Source: an uncultured Gammaproteobacteria bacterium (GTDB lineage: Bacteria > Patescibacteriota > Microgenomatia > Levybacterales > UBA12049). Taken from it: a DNA stretch of 64,000 bases. The notes below the pieces were generated by a model. It was not told where the DNA came from. It did no database searches and saw nothing but the letters and a program-made list of their open reading frames with translations. The position numbers and the translations under genes are program-made. Location: contig CAZFYA010000003.1 in assembly GCA_964523705.1 (NCBI GenBank), positions 432-64,431 of the forward strand, read 5' to 3'. Shown here in pieces: positions 23,760-34,106 of this stretch; within the stretch, counting starts at the first letter, position 1, and every line of letters begins with the position of its first letter.

Positions 23760-26237
23760 ATGAAACTAGACGGTATCAGAGAAAAAGTTTTTCTAGACAG
23801 ATATTCATTAAAAAATAAAAAAGGAGCTCCTGTGGAGAAAACCCCCAATGAGATGTGGAAAAGAGTAGCAAAAGGAGTTGTAAAGGCTGAAAAAGCAAAT
23901 GTTAGAGCAAAGTGGCAAAAAAAATTCTATGATGCAATGCAGGATTTTAAATTTGTTCCGGGAGGAAGAATTTTAGCCGGAGCAGGAACAGGATATCAGG
24001 TAACTTTTTATAACTGTTTTGTTTTACCAAGCCCCAAAGACTCAAGAGATGGAATTTTAGAGAACTTAAAACATATGACTGAAATAATGGCAAGAGGAGG
24101 AGGAGCAGGAATCAATCTTTCATCACTTAGGCCAAGAGGGGCAAGGGTTAAGAAGGTAAATGGATTTTCTTCAGGTCCGATTAATTGGGCAGAGCTTTAT
24201 TCAATAACCACAAAAGACATTATTCAACAAGGTGGCTCAAGAAGAGGAGCATTAATGCTTATGCTTTGGGACTGGCATCCTAATATTGAAGAATTTATTA
24301 CCGTAAAGCAGGATTTAACTAAAATTACCGGAGCAAACCTTTCTGTTTGCGTATCCGATAAATTTATGGAGGCAGTTAGAAAAAATAGCAACTGGGACTT
24401 AGTTTTTCCAGATATTAATGATAAAGACTATGATGAAAAATGGGATGGAAGCCTTGAAAACTGGAAAGCCTTAAAGAAAAAAGTAAAAGTATATAAAACT
24501 GTTAAAGCAAGACATCTTTGGGATTTAATTTGTGAAGCCGCATGGAAATCTGCTGAGCCAGGAGTTGTTTTTATGGAAAGATATAACAAATGGTATAACA
24601 ACTGGTATTGGAATAGAGTAAATTGTACAAATCCATGTGGAGAAGAAGGCTTACCAGCTTGGGGAGTTTGTAATTTAAGCTCTTTGAATTTATCGGCCTT
24701 TGTAAAAGGGTACAGTGTAGACAAACCAGGGGAAATGGATTATAAATCCCTTGCTGAACATGCAAAGATTGGAGTTAGGCTTCAAGATAATGTAATAGAC
24801 CTTGATTCCTATGCTTTTCCTCAAATAAGAGAAATGCAGTTAAACGGAGAAAGAAGAATTGGCCTTGGAACAATGGGTCTTGGAGATGCATTAATAAAAA
24901 TGCATCTTCGCTACGGATCTAGCGATTCACTTAAGGTAATTGAGAAGATATTTAAAACAATTAGAGACGCAGCATATGAAGCATCAGCAGAGCTTGCCAA
25001 AGAAAAGGGTGCATTTCCAAAGTTTAATTCCTCAAAATATTTAAAAGGCTACTTTATTAAAAAACTACCAAAAGAAATAAGAGCAAAAATTAAAAAATAT
25101 GGAATTAGAAACTCGCTTCTTCTTCAAGAAGCACCAACCGGCTCAACCAGTCTTTTAGCAGGGGTTTCATCGGGAATTGAACCAATTTATGAATTTGAAT
25201 TTACAAGAAAAGATAGACTTGGAGAACACAAAATTTATCATCATTTATATGAAGAATGGAAAAACACTCATCCTTCGACAAGCTCAGGACAGGTCCAAGA
25301 AAAACCAGACTATTTTGTTTCAGCAAATGACTTAACACCTGAAGATCATGTAAAAGTTCAGGGTAAAATTCAAGAATATGTTGATGCTTCTATTTCAAAA
25401 ACAGTTAATGCACCAAAAGCCCATACAATTGATGATGTTAAAAGACTTTACATGCTGGCGTATAAAGAAGGTTGCAAAGGAATTGCCTATATGAGAGAAG
25501 GCTCAAGGGAAGGGGTTTTAGTTAGACAAGAAGATAAAAAAGAAGAAGTAAAAAAAGAAGCTACACAACCAATTGATACAAAACGCCCAATTACCCCAAG
25601 GCCGTATATGGTAGAAGGAGTAACATATCAAACCGAAACTCCGGTTGGAAAAACCTTTATTACCATCAATCATGATGATAATAAAGAACCATTTGAAATT
25701 TTTATTACAGTTGGGAAAAGTGGTTCAGACGTTGCTGCGATGGCAGATGCATTAGGTAGAATGTTGTCTTTGTTTTTAAGATCACGTGGACATTTATCTT
25801 CAAGGGAGAGAATAAAACAAATAATAGCACAGCTTATTGGAATTGGTGGTGCAAAAAGCGTTGGTTTTGGTGATAAAAGAGTAAGATCCTTGCCAGATGC
25901 GGTTGCTAAGGTTTTGGCTAAGCACTTTTCTTTTAGAGTAAATGGAATTGTTGAAGATAATCCAAAAGCTGCAAATGGACAAGTTAAAGCAAATGGAGTT
26001 ACTAATGGAATAACCAATGGGCATGTAAAGCCTTCACCTGTTTTAGAACCTCAAAAAGAAGAAGAAAAAGAGGTAGTTATGCTTAAGCAGTTAACAATTG
26101 AAAATCAAGAAGGACACTTAGCAACAGAAGGATTAGCAACAGGGCTTTTTGATATTTGTCCTGATTGTGGAAGTGGAAGCTTAGCTTATGAAGAAGGCTG
26201 TAGGAAATGCTACAGCTGTGGATATTCAGAATGTTAG
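23760..26237 (+). CDS. nrdJ: Class II (adenosylcobalamin-dependent) ribonucleotide reductase
   Basis: 825 aa with RNR catalytic-core motifs (NPCGE, ...). C-terminal Cys cluster CPDCGSG...CRKCYSCGYSEC. Confidence 0.85.
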   Translation: MKLDGIREKVFLDRYSLKNKKGAPVEKTPNEMWKRVAKGVVKAEKANVRAKWQKKFYDAMQDFKFVPGGRILAGAGTGYQVTFYNCFVLPSPKDSRDGILENLKHMTEIMARGGGAGINLSSLRPRGARVKKVNGFSSGPINWAELYSITTKDIIQQGGSRRGALMLMLWDWHPNIEEFITVKQDLTKITGANLSVCVSDKFMEAVRKNSNWDLVFPDINDKDYDEKWDGSLENWKALKKKVKVYKTVKARHLWDLICEAAWKSAEPGVVFMERYNKWYNNWYWNRVNCTNPCGEEGLPAWGVCNLSSLNLSAFVKGYSVDKPGEMDYKSLAEHAKIGVRLQDNVIDLDSYAFPQIREMQLNGERRIGLGTMGLGDALIKMHLRYGSSDSLKVIEKIFKTIRDAAYEASAELAKEKGAFPKFNSSKYLKGYFIKKLPKEIRAKIKKYGIRNSLLLQEAPTGSTSLLAGVSSGIEPIYEFEFTRKDRLGEHKIYHHLYEEWKNTHPSTSSGQVQEKPDYFVSANDLTPEDHVKVQGKIQEYVDASISKTVNAPKAHTIDDVKRLYMLAYKEGCKGIAYMREGSREGVLVRQEDKKEEVKKEATQPIDTKRPITPRPYMVEGVTYQTETPVGKTFITINHDDNKEPFEIFITVGKSGSDVAAMADALGRMLSLFLRSRGHLSSRERIKQIIAQLIGIGGAKSVGFGDKRVRSLPDAVAKVLAKHFSFRVNGIVEDNPKAANGQVKANGVTNGITNGHVKPSPVLEPQKEEEKEVVMLKQLTIENQEGHLATEGLATGLFDICPDCGSGSLAYEEGCRKCYSCGYSEC

Positions 26238-26307
26238 GTGTATAGGTAATTGCCGTGTAATTCGGCGACAGTGCCGCTACTGTTAAAGTCAGAAAACTAT
26301 ACACACC
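26237..26307 (+). promoter_or_regulatory. Structured RNA element with cobalamin-riboswitch-like core motifs (candidate minimal B12 aptamer)
   Basis: Outer helix GGTGTATAG...CTATACACACC encloses GTGTAATTCGGCGACAGTGCCGCTACTGT (compare GGUGAAAAUCCGG...CCCGCCACUGU) and AAGTCAGAAAAC (compare the B12 box AAGUCAGGAGAC). It is followed by a second hairpin CCTCTATATATTAAGTAGAGG. Confidence 0.35.
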
Positions 26308-26387
26308 TCTATATATTAAGTAGAGGATTTCCCGAGCAGGAATTTTTTTATAAATAAACCTTCTTGGGAAACAAGGAGGATTTTTTT

Positions 26388-26906
26388 ATGAAAAAAATAT
26401 ATACAAAAAGGGGAGATAAGGGCTTTACCTACCTTTTTAGCGGTAAAAAAGTAGCAAAAGACCACGCAAAAATACAAGTCTTAGGAAGTATTGATGAGCT
26501 AAATTCAATAATAGGGATAGCAATCTCTTTTTCAAAAGATAAAAAGATAAAGCAAGAATTAATTAATGTTCAAAAAGATTTATTTTTAATAGGAGGATGC
26601 TTAGCAGGATCAACACAGGGAGAAATAGGAACATTAAAAGAAAGAACAGAAAAAATTGAACAATTAATAGATAAATTATCAATTAAACTTCCTATATTAA
26701 CTCACTTTATACTTCCGGGAGGAGTAAAGGAAGCTTCATTGTTACACCTTGCAAGAACAATTTGCAGAAGAGCAGAGCGAAGTATTATAGCTTTTTCCAG
26801 AAGAGAAAAGATAAAAAAAGAAATACCCATTTATTTAAATAGGCTTTCAGACCTCCTTTTTATAATGGCGAGATATACAAACTTTAAATCGAAAAAAAGG
26901 AGGTAG
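26388..26906 (+). CDS. PduO-type ATP:cob(I)alamin adenosyltransferase
   Basis: MKKIYTKRGDKGFTYLFSGKKVAKDHAKIQVLGSIDELNS matches the PduO/MMAB N-terminus. AAGGAGGA RBS at 26372-26379. The track start at 26364 uses a TTG; the ATG at 26388 is preferred. Confidence 0.7.
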   Translation: MKKIYTKRGDKGFTYLFSGKKVAKDHAKIQVLGSIDELNSIIGIAISFSKDKKIKQELINVQKDLFLIGGCLAGSTQGEIGTLKERTEKIEQLIDKLSIKLPILTHFILPGGVKEASLLHLARTICRRAERSIIAFSRREKIKKEIPIYLNRLSDLLFIMARYTNFKSKKRR

Positions 26907-26920
26907 TCTGGAGAAAGTAA

Positions 26921-27970
26921 ATGAAAGAAGTTGTTGGTTCAAGCGCATTTAAAATAGAATATCAGCCACCAGTATTAGACAAAGAAATTAGAGAAGATGT
27001 TGTTTCCTATCTTTGGGAATATCGATTTTGTGGCCAAAAATATAATTACACTTTAGATTTTTCAAATGGGCAGATTCGCGATTGTCATAGAAGTGAGCCA
27101 ATGGGAATTAAGGCAAAAAGAGCAATAGAGGATAGAGAAAAAAAAGGGCTATTAACCAGAAGAGAAGAGGCGGAAGCTATAGGAATTAAAAGATTAGAAA
27201 ACAAATTGATGTTTAGTCGGGATAATTCATCGATTGTTTGGGCAAGTCCACCAGGATTAATAGAGGAGGGGTATGGAGACTATGGTTTTGTATACTTTGG
27301 GAAAGTAAAAAAAGAAGGAAAAGATAAAACGCTTGAAATGACTGCAATAAGAGTAGAAAATCCTTCAATAGATGACTTCAATAGTTTTTTTAAAGAGATA
27401 CTAGATGAAAACATTGATTTTAAAAACGCAGAAGATTTTATATCTTCTCCTGTAATAGTTAGTGAAGAAATCAGCGAAGAGTCAATAGAAAAAATTCTAA
27501 ATAAAGTATTTTTATATCAAGAAAGAAAAGGTGAAGGAGAATACTTTTCTAAAGTAAAAAGAAAACTAGAACCGTTAATAGATCAATTTATTCGCTTAGA
27601 AGGAGAAGGGAAATTAAAAGCATTTTATGCACTTGAAAATTACGCAATCTTACTTAAAGAAGAACATGAAACAGGATTTGAAAACGTACTTTATTTAAGA
27701 CAAAACAATGATCCAACCCTTGAACAGTTAATATCAATTCATGGACACAAACCACCAGTTGTTAGAGGAAGCTGTGGTAGTACAGGAAGTATAGAGAGCA
27801 ATAACCTTTTTAATACAACTTCGAGTTTAGACTTTTTGGAAAACGATAAATACGGATCAAGAAGTTTTACTTGTCCTAATTGTGGAATGGTTAATGTTAG
27901 ACCCGAAAACGAACTTATTTCTTGTTGTCAATATTGTGGCAGCAATGAGGTTTCTTGTTCCCACGCTTAG
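26921..27970 (+). CDS. Hypothetical protein with a C-terminal zinc ribbon
   Basis: 349 aa. C-terminal CPNCG...CCQYCG. No family recognised. Confidence 0.4.
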   Translation: MKEVVGSSAFKIEYQPPVLDKEIREDVVSYLWEYRFCGQKYNYTLDFSNGQIRDCHRSEPMGIKAKRAIEDREKKGLLTRREEAEAIGIKRLENKLMFSRDNSSIVWASPPGLIEEGYGDYGFVYFGKVKKEGKDKTLEMTAIRVENPSIDDFNSFFKEILDENIDFKNAEDFISSPVIVSEEISEESIEKILNKVFLYQERKGEGEYFSKVKRKLEPLIDQFIRLEGEGKLKAFYALENYAILLKEEHETGFENVLYLRQNNDPTLEQLISIHGHKPPVVRGSCGSTGSIESNNLFNTTSSLDFLENDKYGSRSFTCPNCGMVNVRPENELISCCQYCGSNEVSCSHA

Positions 27971-27991
27971 GTTTGTTTAAGCCCTTTTTTA

Positions 27992-28387
27992 ATGCTATTA
28001 TGTTTATATATGGACGACCAGCAAAAAAAGGGATTAAGTAAAGACCAGGACAATATTAACGTTAGCTTGCCTAATAAAGAAGTGGAGCCAGCTCCTGTTA
28101 CAGAATATGTAAAACCTTCGGAGTCGGAAATCACAATAGATAAAGAATTAGAAGAAACAAGAGTTAAAAAAACAGAGGAAACACCAAAACTTACAAAAGA
28201 GCATAAAGACTTAGGGATTGAACACACAGAGCAAATTGAGACACAACAAAAAAAGATAAATTTACCAATTCCTGAAGAAGAAGCAGAACAAATAGAAAAA
28301 AAAGAAAGCCCATCAAGTTCTATAAAATGGTTAGCCTTACTTGTAATTAAGGCTTTTAAAAAAATAAAAGTAGGAGATAATAAATGA
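27992..28387 (+). CDS. Small acidic hypothetical protein with a C-terminal hydrophobic segment
   Basis: 131 aa, E/K-rich, ends WLALLVIKAF. Its stop overlaps the next start. Confidence 0.3.
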   Translation: MLLCLYMDDQQKKGLSKDQDNINVSLPNKEVEPAPVTEYVKPSESEITIDKELEETRVKKTEETPKLTKEHKDLGIEHTEQIETQQKKINLPIPEEEAEQIEKKESPSSSIKWLALLVIKAFKKIKVGDNK

Positions 28388-30750
28388 GCTTAACAGACGC
28401 TTTAACAACCAGTAATTTATTAATGGGAATGATAATGTTTATTGCCTACTTGCTTTTAGTGGCAATTATCGCCTTTGTTCTATTTATAATTTTCTACACC
28501 CTTTTTCTCTTTTATAAAAATAGAAATAGGGAAAAAGAATCTTTAGACTCTGTTTTGCTTCAGGTTGCCCTACCAAGAGATAATGAGATAAAAATTGATG
28601 CTGCAGAACAGCTATTTTCTTCTCTTGCTTCAATAAAAAAGGGTGGATTTTTAAAACTTCAGCCACACATTTCTTTTGAAATAATTGGAATTCCAGGAGA
28701 TATTCGTTTTTATGTTCATGCACCGAACAATTTAAAAGATTTAGTAGAAAAACAAATCAACGGAGCTTATCCTGACGCAGAGATAAAAATAGTGGACGAG
28801 GAAAGCTTAAAAGAGGGCTTTATAATCGGAAACGAATATAATATTTTTTCAAAACAAGGAAAGGTTGCCTTTACTTCTTTAAAGCTTAAAACATCAAATT
28901 ATTATCCGATAAAAGTATATAAAGACCTAGCAGTTGATCCCTTATCTTCGATAACTTCAGTGCTTGCTAAAATGACCGAAGGAGAGGGAGCAGCCATTCA
29001 GGTAATAATAAGTCCGGCAAAAGATAAATGGAAGAAAATGGGAAGAGGTTTTCTTTCAAGAATTAAAAAAGGAGAAGCAAACCCGGAGACTGCTAAATAC
29101 TCCGCGGATTCAAAAGAATTAGAAGCAGTGGAGGGAAAAATATCAAAACCGGGCTTTGATACTGTGATTAGAATTGTTGTTTCATCAAGCACAACTGAAT
29201 CTGCTAATGCACACTTGGGAAATATTATGACCAGCTTTGGGCAATTTAGCGGCATAAATTCATTTACTAAAAACAAACACTTTTTTAAGGGCTTGTTTAT
29301 GAATGATTTTATTTACCGTTTTATGCCAATGCGAGGACAGTCATCTGTTTTAACAAGCGAGGAATTAGCAACTGTTTATCATTTTCCAAATAAAGCAATA
29401 ACAACTCCTCATATTCACTGGCTTAATTCAAAAAGAGCACCTGCTCCTGCAAAAATTCCAGTATCAGGACTTTTTCTTGGTAAAAGTACTTACAGGGGTT
29501 TATCAAAACCGGTATATATACAACAGGATGATAGAAGAAGACACATGTATGTTATTGGAAAAACAGGTGTTGGAAAATCAGAATTTTTAAAGGACATGAT
29601 TTTACAAGATATTAAAAATGGGGAAGGGGTTTGCTTTATTGATCCACACGATACTATTGATAAACTGCTTCCGCTTATTCCACCGGAGCGGGCAGAAGAC
29701 GTAATTCTTTTTGAGCCATCAGACACTGAAAGGCCAATGGGATTAAACATGCTTGAAGCTCAAACAGAAGATCAAAAACACTATGTTGTCTCATCAATAA
29801 TTGGCTTAATGTACAAGCTTTATGATCCTAATAAAACCGGAATTATTGGGCCAAGATTTGAACATGCAATTAGAAATGCAATGTTAACAGTAATGTCTGA
29901 ACCCGGAAATACTTTTGTTGAGGTGGTTAGGGCGTTAACTGATTCAAGTTTTGTTGAAGAACTTTTGCCAAAAGTACAAGACCCAATGGTAAGAAGGTAC
30001 TGGACAGATCAAATCGCCCAAACTTCAGATTTTCATAAATCAGAAGTCTTAGATTACATTGTTTCAAAATTTAGCAGATTCGTAAGTAATAAGATGATGA
30101 GAAATATTATTGGTCAATCTGATTCTGCTTTTAATTTTAGAAAAGCAATGGATGAGGGGAAAATTCTTCTAATCTCCTTATCTAAGGGGAGGATTGGGGA
30201 GGAAAATTCAAGCTTTTTAGGTCTTGTATTAGTGCCAAAAATCTTAGTTGCAGCTATGAGTAGACAAGATACACCGGAGGATAAGAGGCGTGATTTTTAT
30301 CTTTATGTTGATGAGTTTCAAAATTTTGCCACACCTGACTTTGCCCAAATCTTATCAGAGGCCAGGAAATACAGGCTTAATTTAATAGTTGCCAACCAAT
30401 TTATTGGCCAAATGGATGAGGAGGTTAAAAATGCTATTTTTGGAAATGTTGGGACACTAGTTTCTTTTAGGGTTGGAGTAACAGATGCTAATTACCTTCA
30501 GCATGAATACCAACCGGTATTTACTGAGGCAGATCTTATTAATGTTGACAGGTTTAATGCTTACATTAAAACAGTAGTTAATGGAGAACCGGTTCCGCCG
30601 TTCTCAATGGATTTAACGCGTGACATGGTAGAGGAAAAGAAACAAGAAAACCAAAGAGTAGCAGAGTTAATTAGAGAGCTTTCAAGGCTAAAATTCGGAA
30701 GAGATGCTCAAACCGTTGAAAAAGAAATTGCCCAAAGAGCAAGACTTTAA
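28384..30750 (+). CDS. VirD4/TraD-like type IV secretion coupling-protein ATPase (TraG/TraD family)
   Basis: Two N-terminal TM helices. Walker A VIGKTGVGKSEF, Walker B LYVDEFQNF, and LIVANQ... as in TraD/TrwB. Confidence 0.65.
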   Translation: MSLTDALTTSNLLMGMIMFIAYLLLVAIIAFVLFIIFYTLFLFYKNRNREKESLDSVLLQVALPRDNEIKIDAAEQLFSSLASIKKGGFLKLQPHISFEIIGIPGDIRFYVHAPNNLKDLVEKQINGAYPDAEIKIVDEESLKEGFIIGNEYNIFSKQGKVAFTSLKLKTSNYYPIKVYKDLAVDPLSSITSVLAKMTEGEGAAIQVIISPAKDKWKKMGRGFLSRIKKGEANPETAKYSADSKELEAVEGKISKPGFDTVIRIVVSSSTTESANAHLGNIMTSFGQFSGINSFTKNKHFFKGLFMNDFIYRFMPMRGQSSVLTSEELATVYHFPNKAITTPHIHWLNSKRAPAPAKIPVSGLFLGKSTYRGLSKPVYIQQDDRRRHMYVIGKTGVGKSEFLKDMILQDIKNGEGVCFIDPHDTIDKLLPLIPPERAEDVILFEPSDTERPMGLNMLEAQTEDQKHYVVSSIIGLMYKLYDPNKTGIIGPRFEHAIRNAMLTVMSEPGNTFVEVVRALTDSSFVEELLPKVQDPMVRRYWTDQIAQTSDFHKSEVLDYIVSKFSRFVSNKMMRNIIGQSDSAFNFRKAMDEGKILLISLSKGRIGEENSSFLGLVLVPKILVAAMSRQDTPEDKRRDFYLYVDEFQNFATPDFAQILSEARKYRLNLIVANQFIGQMDEEVKNAIFGNVGTLVSFRVGVTDANYLQHEYQPVFTEADLINVDRFNAYIKTVVNGEPVPPFSMDLTRDMVEEKKQENQRVAELIRELSRLKFGRDAQTVEKEIAQRARL

Positions 30751-30760
30751 CCCCTTTTGT

Positions 30761-30788
30761 TTGAAGATTAACAAAATCTTGGTATAAT
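30761..30788 (+). promoter_or_regulatory. Promoter for tRNA-Ile (TTGAAG-16-TATAAT)
   Basis: TTGAAG at 30761-30766 and TATAAT at 30783-30788, 14 nt before the tRNA 5' end. Confidence 0.45.
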
Positions 30789-30802
30789 TCAATAGTAATT
30801 TT

Positions 30803-30876
30803 GCTCCTGTAGCTCAGTGGCAGAGCGCTACTCTTATAAAGTAGATGTCCTTGGTTCGAATCCAAGCAGGAGCACA
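30803..30876 (+). tRNA. tRNA-Ile with anticodon TAT (UAU); no CCA encoded
   Basis: GCTCCTG-TA-GCTC-AGTGGC-AGAGC-G-CTACT-CTTATAA-AGTAG-ATGTC-CTTGG-TTCGAAT-CCAAG-CAGGAGC-A. Anticodon loop CTTATAA puts TAT at positions 34-36. Confidence 0.8.
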
Positions 30877-30878
30877 AT

Positions 30879-31739
30879 TTAAAGTTCTGTGAGAACTGAA
30901 GATTCTTTTCCCCTTTCAGGAACATATTGAAGATATCGCTCAGTTGTAGATAGTCTTTTATGTCCTAAAACCTTAGATAACATTACTAAAGAAATCCCAT
31001 GTTTTAAATGATGAGCAACAAAAGTATGTCTTAAATCATTAACTTTTGCTCCTTTAATTTCAGCTAATCTAAAATATCTTTCAACAGCAGTTCTAATATT
31101 TCTGATTAAAAATGGCTTTCCGGATTTTGTAATAAATAATGTTTCTTCAGTTGTTTTAGGTCTTACTTCCAGATATTTTTCTAAAGCATCTTTTGCTCTT
31201 TTATTAAGGGGGACCATTCTTTCCTCGTGTTTTTCAAAAGGAGCAATATATAGACTGTCTTTTTTAATATCTGAAAGTTTTAGGGCTGCCAATTCTCCAA
31301 TTCTAATACCGGTTTGAAGTAAAAGCTCAATAATGGCATACATTCTGGCATCATTTCTTGCAGCATCTCTTAATGCTCTGTATTCTGTTGGTGTTAAAAT
31401 TCTAGGTGGAGCAAGTTGATAAGTAGGGTGGGCAATTAAAAGCGATGGATCATCTGTAATATATTCATTTATTTTTAAAAACCTATAAAAAGTTCTGGTA
31501 GAGTTAATTTTTCTAGATACTGACTTTGGAGTATAACCCTCCTTGTTCATTTTTGCTAAAAAAGCCTCTAGGTCTTCTTTGGCTACATCATGAACATGAG
31601 CTTTTTTAAGCTCTTCAAGAAAAACTACAAGCTGATCAATATCTTTTCCGTAGGCAACTACGGTTGAGTTTGAATGCTTGTTATCCTGTAAATATTTTTT
31701 AAATCGCTCGTGGGCATCCCGAAGCTTAATTGGCGTCAT
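30879..31739 (-). CDS. XerC/XerD-family tyrosine site-specific recombinase
   Basis: 286 aa. C-terminal R...HxxR...LGHKRLSTTERYLQY with the catalytic Tyr. The N-terminal SAM-like domain is typical of Xer proteins. Confidence 0.75.
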   Translation of the reverse strand: MTPIKLRDAHERFKKYLQDNKHSNSTVVAYGKDIDQLVVFLEELKKAHVHDVAKEDLEAFLAKMNKEGYTPKSVSRKINSTRTFYRFLKINEYITDDPSLLIAHPTYQLAPPRILTPTEYRALRDAARNDARMYAIIELLLQTGIRIGELAALKLSDIKKDSLYIAPFEKHEERMVPLNKRAKDALEKYLEVRPKTTEETLFITKSGKPFLIRNIRTAVERYFRLAEIKGAKVNDLRHTFVAHHLKHGISLVMLSKVLGHKRLSTTERYLQYVPERGKESSVLTEL

Positions 31740-32999: not shown

Positions 33000-33290
33000 A
33001 AAAATCTTTGTTGCGGGGCTAGGAGTTGCGCCTAGCCTATGAGATTATGCAATCTGTTTCTCTAATTACTTAGAGTGTCGGACTATATCATCATCCATTT
33101 TCTGGATGCTTGGCGTGTAGTCTCTACGGGATCTTTTTTTAGACTTCCCTCGGTATTGTCCTATCGAAATAGGATTTTACCGATATAGCCAAGTTCTCTT
33201 CTCATTATTGCTAATAAAAAGGGCCCATTTGAGCCTCATGTGCACTGTACACTACCCCGCACGTGAAAGCATTATAACAATTTAACTTTA
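33000..33290 (-). ncRNA. Group I intron-like ribozyme core (P3-P9), on the strand opposite to the adjacent LAGLIDADG ORF
   Basis: Minus-strand assignments, given as plus coordinates. P3 is CUUGGC (33188-33193) paired with GCCAAG (33109-33114). P4 is UCGGUA/UACCGA. P5 is UCCUAU/AUAGGA capped by a UUCG loop. P6 is GGGA...UCCC. P7 is AGACUA (complement of 33118-33123) paired with UAGUC (complement of 33081-33087). P8 is CAUCCA/UGGAUG. P9 is CUCUAA-GUAA-UUAGAG with a GNRA loop. P9.2 is GGCUAGG/CCUAGCC. The S-element-like string GAUAUAGUCC is present. Confidence 0.6.
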
Positions 33291-34052
33291 ATGGGTCAAC
33301 GTTTGACAAAAATAGAACAGGTAGCTATAGTATTAGTACTAATATATTTTGGCAGTTTGATTATGGCAAAATTTGAGCTTAGATTACGGGCACGAGAAAT
33401 GAGAAAAAAAGGAATTAGCGTCAAGGAAATTGCTAACACGTTGGGAATTTCGAAAAGCACAGCTAGTATTTGGGTTAGAGATGTAGTTCTGTCAATTAGT
33501 CAACTAGAGAAATTAAGACAAAAAAGCCTTGATGGAGCAGAGCGTGGGCGTTTAAAAAGTGCTTTAATGCAAAAAAATAGATGGATTAAAAAATTAGAAG
33601 CACATAAGCAAGCAGGAATAAAAACGATTGGTGATTTGGACAAGAGAGAATTTTTTATCGCTGGGCTTGCATTGTATTGGGCAGAGGGAAGTAAAAAAAG
33701 CAGATCTGTAGAATTTTGCAACTCAGATCCCAAGATGATCGTATTTTTAATACGTTGGCTTACGGAATGTTTTTCGATAGGGAAAGAAGAGCTTAGGTGT
33801 AACGTTGGAATAAATGAAATTCACAGGAAAAGAGAGAAAATTATTAATGAATACTGGTCAAATATTACAGGTATTCCATTAAGTCAATTTAGGAAAATAA
33901 TGTATAAAAAAGTTATAAATAAAAAAATCTATGAAAATTACGATAATTATTTTGGAACTCTTGCTGTCAGAGTAATGCAACCATCGAGATTTTATGCTAA
34001 AATCTTAGGGCTAATAGAAGGATTAGCATTTGCCAGCGTAGCTCAGGGGTAG
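33291..34052 (+). CDS. HTH plus single-motif LAGLIDADG homing endonuclease-like protein
   Basis: N-terminal HTH (ISVKEIANTLGISKSTASIWVRDV). LAGLIDADG motif FFIAGLALYWAEGSKK. A possible degenerate second motif GLIEGLAF lies at the extreme C-terminus. The stop codon lies inside the D loop of the downstream tRNA-Met. The real start may be the Met at 33363. Confidence 0.6.
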   Translation: MGQRLTKIEQVAIVLVLIYFGSLIMAKFELRLRAREMRKKGISVKEIANTLGISKSTASIWVRDVVLSISQLEKLRQKSLDGAERGRLKSALMQKNRWIKKLEAHKQAGIKTIGDLDKREFFIAGLALYWAEGSKKSRSVEFCNSDPKMIVFLIRWLTECFSIGKEELRCNVGINEIHRKREKIINEYWSNITGIPLSQFRKIMYKKVINKKIYENYDNYFGTLAVRVMQPSRFYAKILGLIEGLAFASVAQG

Positions 34053-34106
34053 AGCGGACGTTTCATAAGCGTCATGTCGCAGGTTCGAATCCTGCCGTTG
34101 GTACTA
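34032..34106 (+). tRNA. tRNA-Met (anticodon CAT), elongator-type; no CCA encoded
   Basis: GCCAGCG-TA-GCTC-AGGGGTA-GAGC-G-GACGT-TTCATAA-GCGTC-ATGTC-GCAGG-TTCGAAT-CCTGC-CGTTGGT-A. The acceptor stem has two G-U pairs and there is no GGG/CCC run in the anticodon stem, so it is not an initiator. It could alternatively be tRNA-Ile(LAU). Confidence 0.75.

Follow-up and report, generated by a model that had tools for sequence, protein, structure and literature searches.

The window analysed here, 64,000 nucleotides of contig CAZFYA010000003.1, is DNA from the chromosomal core of a member of Candidatus Levybacteria (class Microgenomatia of the Patescibacteria, also called the Candidate Phyla Radiation, CPR). 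It carries a gene for a 788-aa membrane-anchored ATPase, directly preceded by a gene for a small acidic protein of 131 aa (here called the partner) and followed by genes for tRNA-Ile(UAU) and a Xer-like tyrosine recombinase. The ATPase is a coupling protein of the VirD4/TrwB/TraD type (type IV coupling protein, T4CP), not an FtsK protein and probably not a HerA protein. Together with the partner it forms a conserved unit of two genes, not three, and its gene is a vertically inherited component of the core chromosome. As the best explanation of the whole we propose a core, vertically inherited pair in which the ATPase would serve the relaxase-less type IV secretion system (T4SS) of the phylum with the assistance of the small protein; we give this account as a whole a little better than an even chance.

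The ATPase gene (28384-30750, + strand) has a GGAG Shine-Dalgarno sequence 8 nt upstream and overlaps the end of the partner gene (27992-28387, + strand) by 4 bp (ATGA), and the two genes are probably translationally coupled. An earlier interpretation made from the letters of the DNA (the sequence-only reading) had described three overlapping genes, the first of them encoding a 349-aa protein. The three + strand open reading frames (ORFs), the tRNA-Ile and the recombinase gene all lie where that reading placed them, and the overlap is correct for the partner and ATPase genes; between the genes of the 349-aa and 131-aa proteins there is a gap of 21 bp. That these are real genes is indicated by the homologs of the ATPase and the 349-aa protein, which number hundreds to thousands.

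The ATPase comprises an N-terminal membrane-anchor helix (aa 9-54, nt 28408-28545), an N-terminal domain attributed to Pfam family DUF8128 in the precomputed annotation (aa 56-340, nt 28549-29403) and a P-loop nucleotide-binding domain (aa 360-745, nt 29461-30618), all on the + strand. The P-loop domain includes a Walker A motif, GKTGVGKS (aa 392-399, nt 29557-29580), and a Walker B motif, YVDEFQNF (aa 641-648; the Walker B segment is placed at aa 638-647, nt 30295-30324). Residues G392, G397, K398, D643 and E644 are invariant in the homolog alignment. The anchor is a single long hydrophobic helix, visible both as a hydrophobic run in the translation and in the AlphaFold2 (AF2) model, which bears out the membrane anchoring proposed earlier. 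Because the basic stretch KNRNREKE directly follows this helix, the positive-inside rule suggests that the N-terminal domain and the motor are cytoplasmic.

The earlier assignment of the ATPase to the TraD/VirD4 type, with its clear Walker A and B motifs, is upheld by Pfam, NCBIfam and the ranking of PDB profile matches. In Pfam, TrwB_AAD_bind (8e-6, 25.4 bits, cut-off 20.5) and TraG-D_C (5.8e-6, 26.7 bits, cut-off 22) are both matched, T4SS-DNA_transf is also among the matches, and DUF87, the central domain of HerA, scores above its gathering threshold (1e-6, 29.4 bits, cut-off 23.2). The best NCBIfam matches are SXT_TraD (1.5e-13), TOL TraD and a CD1115 VirD4-like family. A profile of 47 diverse relatives used to search the PDB placed TrwB (2e-7) and DotL (6e-7) first and HerA later (2e-3), with no FtsK chain listed among the matches, and the alignment spans the Walker A, Walker B and Q-x3-Q segments of TrwB (Q672/Q676 in the ATPase). 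FtsK/SpoIIIE, HerA and the ATPase are all members of the ASCE (additional strand, catalytic glutamate) P-loop superfamily, and the alternative of a grouping with FtsK or HerA had been raised at the outset. However, the T4CP families match better. FtsK_SpoIIIE reaches 18.8 bits against a cut-off of 24, with only the P-loop residues 375-407 aligned; the DNA-binding gamma domain of FtsK, which recognises the FtsK orienting polar sequences (KOPS), has no Pfam match in the ATPase at E<=0.1; the four-helix membrane domain of FtsK is also lacking; and no NurA-like neighbour, the partner of HerA, was seen.

The structural comparison is consistent with this. The AF2 model is confident (pLDDT 89.4, pTM 0.81) and consists, in order, of the helix 9-54, an N-terminal domain built of repeated beta-alpha-beta units (56-340) and the P-loop domain, within which a helical insert is modelled (aa ~462-576). 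Foldseek superposes the model on TrwB with a TM-score of 0.60-0.69 on target length, a root-mean-square deviation (rmsd) of 4-6 A and an E-value of ~1e-12, and also matches Cagbeta. HerA structures give similar E-values (~1e-11-1e-12), T4CPs ranking above HerA by sequence. TrwB (R388), VirD4, Cagbeta and DotL are likewise membrane-anchored P-loop motors, and those of the TrwB/VirD4 type are the best solved relatives both by sequence and by rigid superposition. They also share the insert in the motor; its all-alpha character in the ATPase was judged by secondary structure within the whole-model comparison. The ATPase differs from them in carrying an extra N-terminal domain of ~285 aa between anchor and motor and in lying away from any relaxase or T4SS, and identity in the structural alignments is 16-17%.

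The lowest Foldseek E-value (9e-16) belongs to full-length alignments with TrwK/VirB4, which superpose poorly (TM-score 0.30, rmsd 16 A). Neither AAA_10 nor CagE_TrbE_VirB has a Pfam match in the ATPase, and VirB4 families in NCBIfam reach 5e-4 to 8e-3. Because the best Foldseek E-values come from these full-length alignments, the modelled N-terminal domain may resemble that of VirB4. This domain ends in an invariant EELAxxxHFP motif. A profile of 21 sequences of it found only coiled or designed-repeat noise in the PDB and nothing in a local copy of Pfam, and the domain fusions in long relatives of the ATPase are tetratricopeptide repeats or nothing informative.

More is learned about the N-terminal domain from plasmids. 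A translated search with the ATPase against 72,556 plasmids identified relatives in 427 records, 85 of which cover at least 80% of the protein. For example, a 64.7-kb Bacillus subtilis plasmid (locus L094, 6111-8852) encodes a 913-aa DUF87 protein with 26% identity (E 7e-48), collinear with residues 94-747 of the ATPase, N-terminal domain motifs included. Its neighbours belong to the replication-relaxation and TcpE families, and a 'conjugal transfer protein' and a separate VirB4-type AAA_10 ATPase (4e-83) are also encoded there. In the Haloterrigena plasmid pHTS138 (locus L095, 7758-12051) the N-terminal domain and the motor are two adjoining genes, in a cluster that also holds a pilin gene and a gene for a conjugal transfer protein. 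These coupling proteins of Bacillus plasmids (such as NZ_OX419568.1) and haloarchaeal plasmids are ~25-30% identical to the ATPase, with which they share full-length collinearity and the motifs ISFEI, GEgAAIQ, IRIvVS and EEL..FP. They differ from it in their setting (clusters with VirB4-like ATPases, TcpE, pilin and a relaxase-like gene, none of which adjoins the ATPase of the window), in the division of the haloarchaeal forms into two genes, and in the lack of a counterpart of the small CPR partner upstream.

Since the DUF8128-like domain is a separate gene in haloarchaeal plasmids and fused to the motor in Bacillus plasmids and in CPR bacteria, it acts as a module in its own right among the coupling proteins of monoderm bacteria and archaea. 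The T4CP subtype to which the ATPase belongs is the one found in these organisms: because its collinear homologs sit in conjugation-type clusters of Bacillus and Haloterrigena, as far as these plasmid clusters can be read from their genes, its architecture appears to match the coupling ATPase encoded in T4SS clusters of the monoderm and archaeal type. This agrees with the origin of the Patescibacteria T4SS from the MPF-FATA class, as published by Quinonero-Coronel et al. (2025, PMC12102498).

The ATPase family is large: of the clusters formed at 50% identity, 22,607 match with E<=1e-3, and 5,851 still do so with E<=1e-30. Among the 120 best matches listed, identity is 75-100% and the only named sources are Candidatus Levybacteria or unplaced Patescibacteria. 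Full-length relatives with 38-78% identity occur in genomes of Levy-, Woese-, Curtiss-, Davies-, Roizman-, Shapiro-, Collier-, Dojka-, Berkel-, Doudna-, Uhr-, Magasanik- and Staskawiczbacteria, WWE3 and Saccharibacteria. The suggestion that the ATPase is part of a system conserved in CPR bacteria with small genomes therefore stands. Some CPR genomes carry two paralogs in tandem or close by (loci L046, 1128-6163, and L074, 5860-13312), which agrees with the approximately two T4CP copies per genome reported in the literature.

We compared 80 ATPase loci from species-representative genomes. A small ORF on the same strand abuts the start of the ATPase gene in 65 of them, typically with gaps of -4 to +20 bp, and 48 of these 65 ORFs fall into recurring families. 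The 131-aa protein is a member of a family of 15 from Microgenomatia, encoded directly upstream of the orthologous ATPase and characterised by the C-terminal motif LPxT ... G ... SxxWLAxxxxRxxK. Two smaller partner families are weakly related to it through this C-terminal motif (hhalign E ~3e-4 to 5e-4); three others are unrelated in sequence and come from loci that appear to be of Parcubacteria and Saccharibacteria type. When the ATPases are placed in a neighbour-joining tree, every partner family corresponds to a separate clade of ATPases. The pair is inherited vertically across the phylum, different ATPase clades being accompanied by partners of different sequence families.

The partner itself was described earlier as an acidic protein with a hydrophobic tail. 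It is acidic (pI 5.2), but the tail is a short, basic, amphipathic C-terminal helix, SIKWLALLVIKAFKKIK, whose hydrophobic run is too short to span a membrane. The conserved C-terminal motif that includes this helix extends over aa 89-126 (nt 28256-28369, + strand) and follows the pattern LPxP/T ... SxxWLAxxxxxxxK, and the N-terminal part of the protein is of low complexity. The start of the gene is uncertain: databases call M7 at 28010, which would give a protein of 125 aa, and a clear Shine-Dalgarno sequence is missing at both positions. The searches run showed no sequence or structural similarity of the 131-aa protein to CagZ, TraM or IcmS/IcmW. Relaxase, MobC and TraM families had been suggested as places to look for relatives of both the 131-aa and the 349-aa protein; Pfam, NCBIfam, PADLOC and PHROGs gave no credible match of this type for either.

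The 349-aa protein, a lineage-specific protein in a variable slot, is encoded at 26921-27970 (+ strand) behind a strong Shine-Dalgarno sequence (AAGGAGG). Its C-terminal Zn ribbon, which the sequence-only reading had recognised, is well supported (aa 318-339, nt 27872-27937, + strand; CxxC-14-CxxC): in 55 homologs C318, C336 and C339 are invariant and C321 nearly so. There are 119 homologs and no Pfam family; identity is typically ~40% in relatives whose ATPase reaches ~79%. In addition to the Zn ribbon, the invariant motifs of the family are WASPPG..EGYGDYGF and GSCGS. The structure model is confident (pLDDT 85.5) yet has no fold match in the PDB (best E 0.066). In related genomes the slot between the gene for the B12 adenosyltransferase PduO and the partner gene holds divergent relatives with SPPG and Zn-ribbon features (L001, L004 and L006) or unrelated large proteins (L010 and L011), or is empty (L002, L013 and L018); in L014 and L019 relatives of the 349-aa type lie on the opposite strand. 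The partner-ATPase pair persists where the relative is absent or inverted. Because the slot can be absent, replaced or inverted in this way, the 349-aa protein is not an obligate part of the ATPase module, and of the three-gene operon only the partner-ATPase pair is retained.

The 349-aa protein is a fast-evolving accessory, possibly tied to the upstream PduO. In a stronger form of this idea, which we regard as unlikely, it would work with PduO and the adenosylcobalamin (AdoCbl) riboswitch upstream and not with the ATPase. Its gene starts 14 bp after that of PduO, downstream of the riboswitch; the copies in relatives lie between PduO and the partner and are lost or inverted while the partner-ATPase pair stays; and one metagenome-assembled genome (L096) encodes an in-frame fusion of PduO and the 349-aa protein. 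The fusion is, however, a single case that could reflect a lost stop codon, the protein has neither a cobalamin-related domain nor a fold match, and its family evolves far faster than PduO.

The riboswitch in question is an AdoCbl-II aptamer (26228-26307, + strand, 50.8 bits) between the ribonucleotide reductase (RNR) gene and the PduO gene. It is followed by a terminator-like hairpin (26359-26379, + strand) which sequesters the Shine-Dalgarno sequence of PduO. Seven consecutive T come next, and then an ATG at 26388 that is probably the true start of PduO, rather than the TTG at 26364. The gaps between the successive genes for PduO, the 349-aa protein, the 131-aa protein and the ATPase are 14, 21 and -4 bp, and a consensus scan of the + strand from PduO to the ATPase revealed no terminator and no strong promoter between genes. 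A single transcript could thus run from the riboswitch and PduO through the ATPase, with B12 control of the whole.

The sequence-only reading also left room for an integrated conjugative element that had used the tRNA as attachment site and whose edge would lie here. In the form considered by us, a conjugative or mobilisable element would have inserted at the tRNA-Ile by means of the tyrosine recombinase, with the ATPase as its coupling protein. The arrangement invites such an idea. The gene run ends 52 bp before tRNA-Ile(UAU) (30803-30875, + strand), close to the ~50 bp first given; the tRNA has a promoter-like site of its own at 30761-30788; and the recombinase gene (30879-31739, - strand), convergent with that of the ATPase, lies just beyond it. 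Genes for an ATPase of the T4CP type, for a tRNA and for a tyrosine recombinase are thus found within 1 kb of one another, and full-length homologs of the ATPase occur on conjugation-type plasmids. The comparison nevertheless refutes an element edge, which we consider extremely improbable: it is at odds with the gene order in relatives, the absence of an attachment repeat and the native composition of the region. Synteny at this tRNA in related genomes together with a missing attachment repeat is also the outcome that the sequence-only reading had named in advance as speaking against its idea.

On a 389-kb groundwater contig (L001), whose ATPase is 79% identical to that of the window, the gene order is the same: NrdR, RNR, PduO, a 452-aa protein, a 134-aa protein, ATPase, tRNA-Ile(tat), Xer (- strand) and DivIC, with MurI and MurD further on. 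Identities are 83% for NrdR, 80% for Xer, 79% for the ATPase, 66% for RNR, 61% for DivIC and 53% for PduO; the 134-aa protein, the positional homolog of the partner, is 36% identical to it. The ATPase and Xer are among the best-conserved genes of the region, conserved as NrdR is. The order NrdR-RNR-PduO ... ATPase-tRNA-Ile(UAU)-Xer-DivIC recurs in Levybacteria, Woesebacteria, Daviesbacteria, Collierbacteria and Dojkabacteria. Among the 80 loci, tRNA-Ile(tat) lies at most 1.3 kb downstream of the ATPase in 23 and a Xer ortholog within ~3 kb downstream in 20. Where extra DNA separates the tRNA from Xer in relatives, it consists of ordinary genes (a major facilitator superfamily transporter, NUDIX, a penicillin-binding protein, a VapBC pair) and no element. 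The synteny with related genomes that was to be examined is therefore present.

Two probes of 21-22 nt from the 3' half of the tRNA-Ile gene, with up to 3 mismatches allowed, gave one match each in the 64 kb, so that no second copy of this half is present in the window, and the only long direct repeats over 20-40 kb are AT-rich chance matches. The possibility of foreign composition at 26.9-31.7 kb also found no support: tetranucleotide z-scores are -0.9 to +0.3, the GC profile shows no deviation within the window, and the GC content of third codon positions and codon usage are as in core genes. In agreement with the earlier observation that VirB4, relaxase and pilin genes are not visible, none of the three has a Pfam match in the 31 ORFs scanned (11 of at least 453 aa and 20 smaller ones, not every ORF of the window). 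With no other T4SS gene match among these ORFs, the description of the ATPase as an orphan in the window is appropriate.

The recombinase carries both expected domains (Phage_integrase 1.4e-29, Phage_int_SAM_1 3.4e-15) and is 72-80% identical within Levybacteria. Its earlier attribution to the XerC/D family holds as far as a tyrosine recombinase is concerned; the equivalog cut-offs are not reached (171 bits against 330 for XerD, 169 against 335 for XerC and 152 against 220 for XerA), and it is best described as Xer-like. Its conserved synteny suggests a housekeeping role. The tRNA-Ile(UAU) and Xer genes are long-standing core chromosomal neighbours of the ATPase gene, and not an attachment site, an element integrase or components of the module.

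These observations also bear on a proposal that the ATPase is a component of anti-phage defence or a phage-derived, packaging-type ATPase. In PADLOC its motor matches mad8, a component of the MADS defence system (1.2e-16), with HerA models near 1e-5, and in PHROGs it matches phrog_5156, of function not known, over nearly its full length (6e-97). The gene is, however, core, syntenic and highly conserved, no other defence genes adjoin it, and just 12 relatives were found in 2.9 million viral contigs (IMG/VR), mostly of the motor domain alone. We hold a defence or phage origin to be very improbable.

The surroundings of the ATPase are otherwise those of a core chromosome. The recognisable remainder of the window is housekeeping: two class A penicillin-binding proteins, PGK, GAPDH, NrdR, RNR, PduO, MurI, MurD, TGT, a tRNA synthetase, FtsH, RecF, an ATP-dependent DNA ligase and a 5'-3' exonuclease. 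Outside Microgenomatia most of the conserved neighbours inspected are also housekeeping genes, for example DnaX, CysS, GyrB and SmpB, in lineage-specific sets with a few unannotated members.

An orphan group of T4CPs in Patescibacteria has already been described. Quinonero-Coronel et al. (PMC12102498) report 5,713 VirD4-like T4CPs in 2,918 of 3,035 Patescibacteria genomes, about two orphan homologs per genome, of which only 148 are near virB4; 2,417 genomes encode VirB4 and 103 relaxases. Like the ATPase of the window, these proteins come from the same phylum, carry the Pfam signature TrwB_AAD_bind plus TraG-D_C and are chromosomal, away from virB4 and without a relaxase. The ATPase almost certainly belongs to this published set. 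The passages of that article consulted make no mention of the DUF8128 N-terminal domain, an abutting partner, clade-specific partner families or a linkage to tRNA-Ile(UAU) and Xer. The near-universal orphan group is therefore already known; the partner gene and the link of the N-terminal domain to plasmid T4CPs are newly noted here. In the species Southlakia epibionticum (S. epibionticum) the T4SS is essential, and its cluster is without recognisable coupling and relaxase proteins (Wang et al., PMC10633639).

The role that we infer to be most likely for the ATPase is that of a substrate-recruiting motor for this relaxase-less T4SS. By analogy with TrwB, it would form a membrane-bound ring of six subunits on the cytoplasmic side and, as expected from its family, use ATP to handle a substrate, either protein or nucleic acid. 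From the biology of the phylum, it would recruit this substrate as the motor of the chromosomal T4SS, whose VirB4 cluster would lie elsewhere in the genome. The partner would act as an adaptor or regulator, docking by its C-terminal amphipathic helix. Small, often acidic proteins encoded near a T4CP are found in the pairs CagZ-Cagbeta, TraM-TraD and IcmS/IcmW-DotL, and CagZ, TraM and IcmS/IcmW regulate or load their coupling proteins; the partner in the window, which abuts its ATPase, may be analogous.

Several points weigh against this role. Classical T4CPs have two transmembrane helices and only one is predicted in the ATPase. No T4SS component can be recognised among the conserved neighbour families of the 80 ATPase loci. 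The hexamer, the docking of the partner and the coupling to a T4SS are all steps that we infer by analogy. According to PMC12102498, T4CP homologs are present in more genomes than VirB4 (2,918 and 2,417, respectively), and the S. epibionticum T4CP homolog was not essential although the T4SS was; exaptation was raised by the authors.

Because the family is wider than VirB4, almost never linked to it and dispensable where the T4SS is essential, the main rival to a T4SS motor is an exapted housekeeping translocase of nucleic acids, independent of the T4SS. It might import DNA or nucleotides for salvage in an organism that has no de novo synthesis of nucleotides, or act in septal segregation and dimer resolution with Xer and DivIC. 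The very strong conservation of the ATPase sequence speaks for such a function, as do its DNA-related neighbours (in Microgenomatia these are NrdR-RNR and Xer-DivIC, in other lineages DnaX or GyrB) and the existence of relatives in the superfamily, FtsK and archaeal Ced, that move DNA without a relaxase; weak NCBIfam matches to CedD and CedB were observed. On the other hand, Xer and DivIC do not share an operon with the ATPase but are oriented towards it, beyond Microgenomatia and Dojkabacteria they are not linked to it at all, and general collinearity could explain the neighbour pattern. The lack of an FtsK gamma domain and the FtsK Pfam score below threshold also count against this rival, as does the separate ftsK annotated in a Saccharibacteria genome (PMC10768705). 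As regards the DNA uptake suggested in the sequence-only reading, natural transformation depends on ComEC in the one genetically studied Patescibacteria species, S. epibionticum (review PMC12857230). In our estimate this rival, though the strongest, is improbable. A more specific version, in which the DUF8128-T4CP and its partner would be a self-contained, CPR-specific translocase, either importing host-derived DNA or nucleotides to feed the deoxynucleotide supply of the adjacent RNR or pumping DNA at the septum with Xer/DivIC, appears to us distinctly improbable.

Other features of the window concern tRNA genes and introns. The UAU anticodon is rare in bacterial tRNA-Ile. Because tRNA-Ile(UAU) is kept directly downstream of the ATPase in the 23 related loci, these Microgenomatia and Dojkabacteria lineages, it is suggested, read AUA with a UAU tRNA, instead of or besides a lysidine-modified CAU tRNA. 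A tRNA(CAU) gene at 33011-33261 (- strand) contains a group I intron of 182 nt (33050-33231), which matches the full Rfam model RF00028 with 81.6 bits. In the raw sequence this tRNA escapes ARAGORN, which accepts the joined inferred exons (33261-33232 + 33049-33011) as a 69-nt tRNA-Met(cat); the D stem of this tRNA has 3 bp, and its T loop, CGCAACT, is unusual. The splice rules of group I introns fit, with U ending the 5' exon and G ending the intron. An ORF with a helix-turn-helix (HTH) domain (33291-34052, + strand) adjoins the intron-bearing tRNA, and its 3' end overlaps a tRNA-Met gene at 34032-34104. A LAGLIDADG_3 ORF (1136-2125, + strand) lies between two tRNA-Ser genes, its end overlapping the start of the second. 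Both ORFs may be homing-endonuclease-like genes.

Patescibacteria account for a large share of bacterial diversity and rely on hosts for nucleotides and other building blocks. The locus alone does not reveal the function of the ATPase. What it contributes is that no mobile element is involved, that the unit consists of two genes, the partner and the ATPase, and that the N-terminal domain links the protein to T4CPs of Bacillus and haloarchaeal plasmids. An orphan T4CP family that is strongly conserved and present in ~96% of genomes is an obvious candidate for the missing motor of the T4SS or, alternatively, for a separate DNA-handling function. If the latter is true, a translocase independent of the T4SS would mean that a whole phylum has put a conjugation motor to a new physiological purpose.

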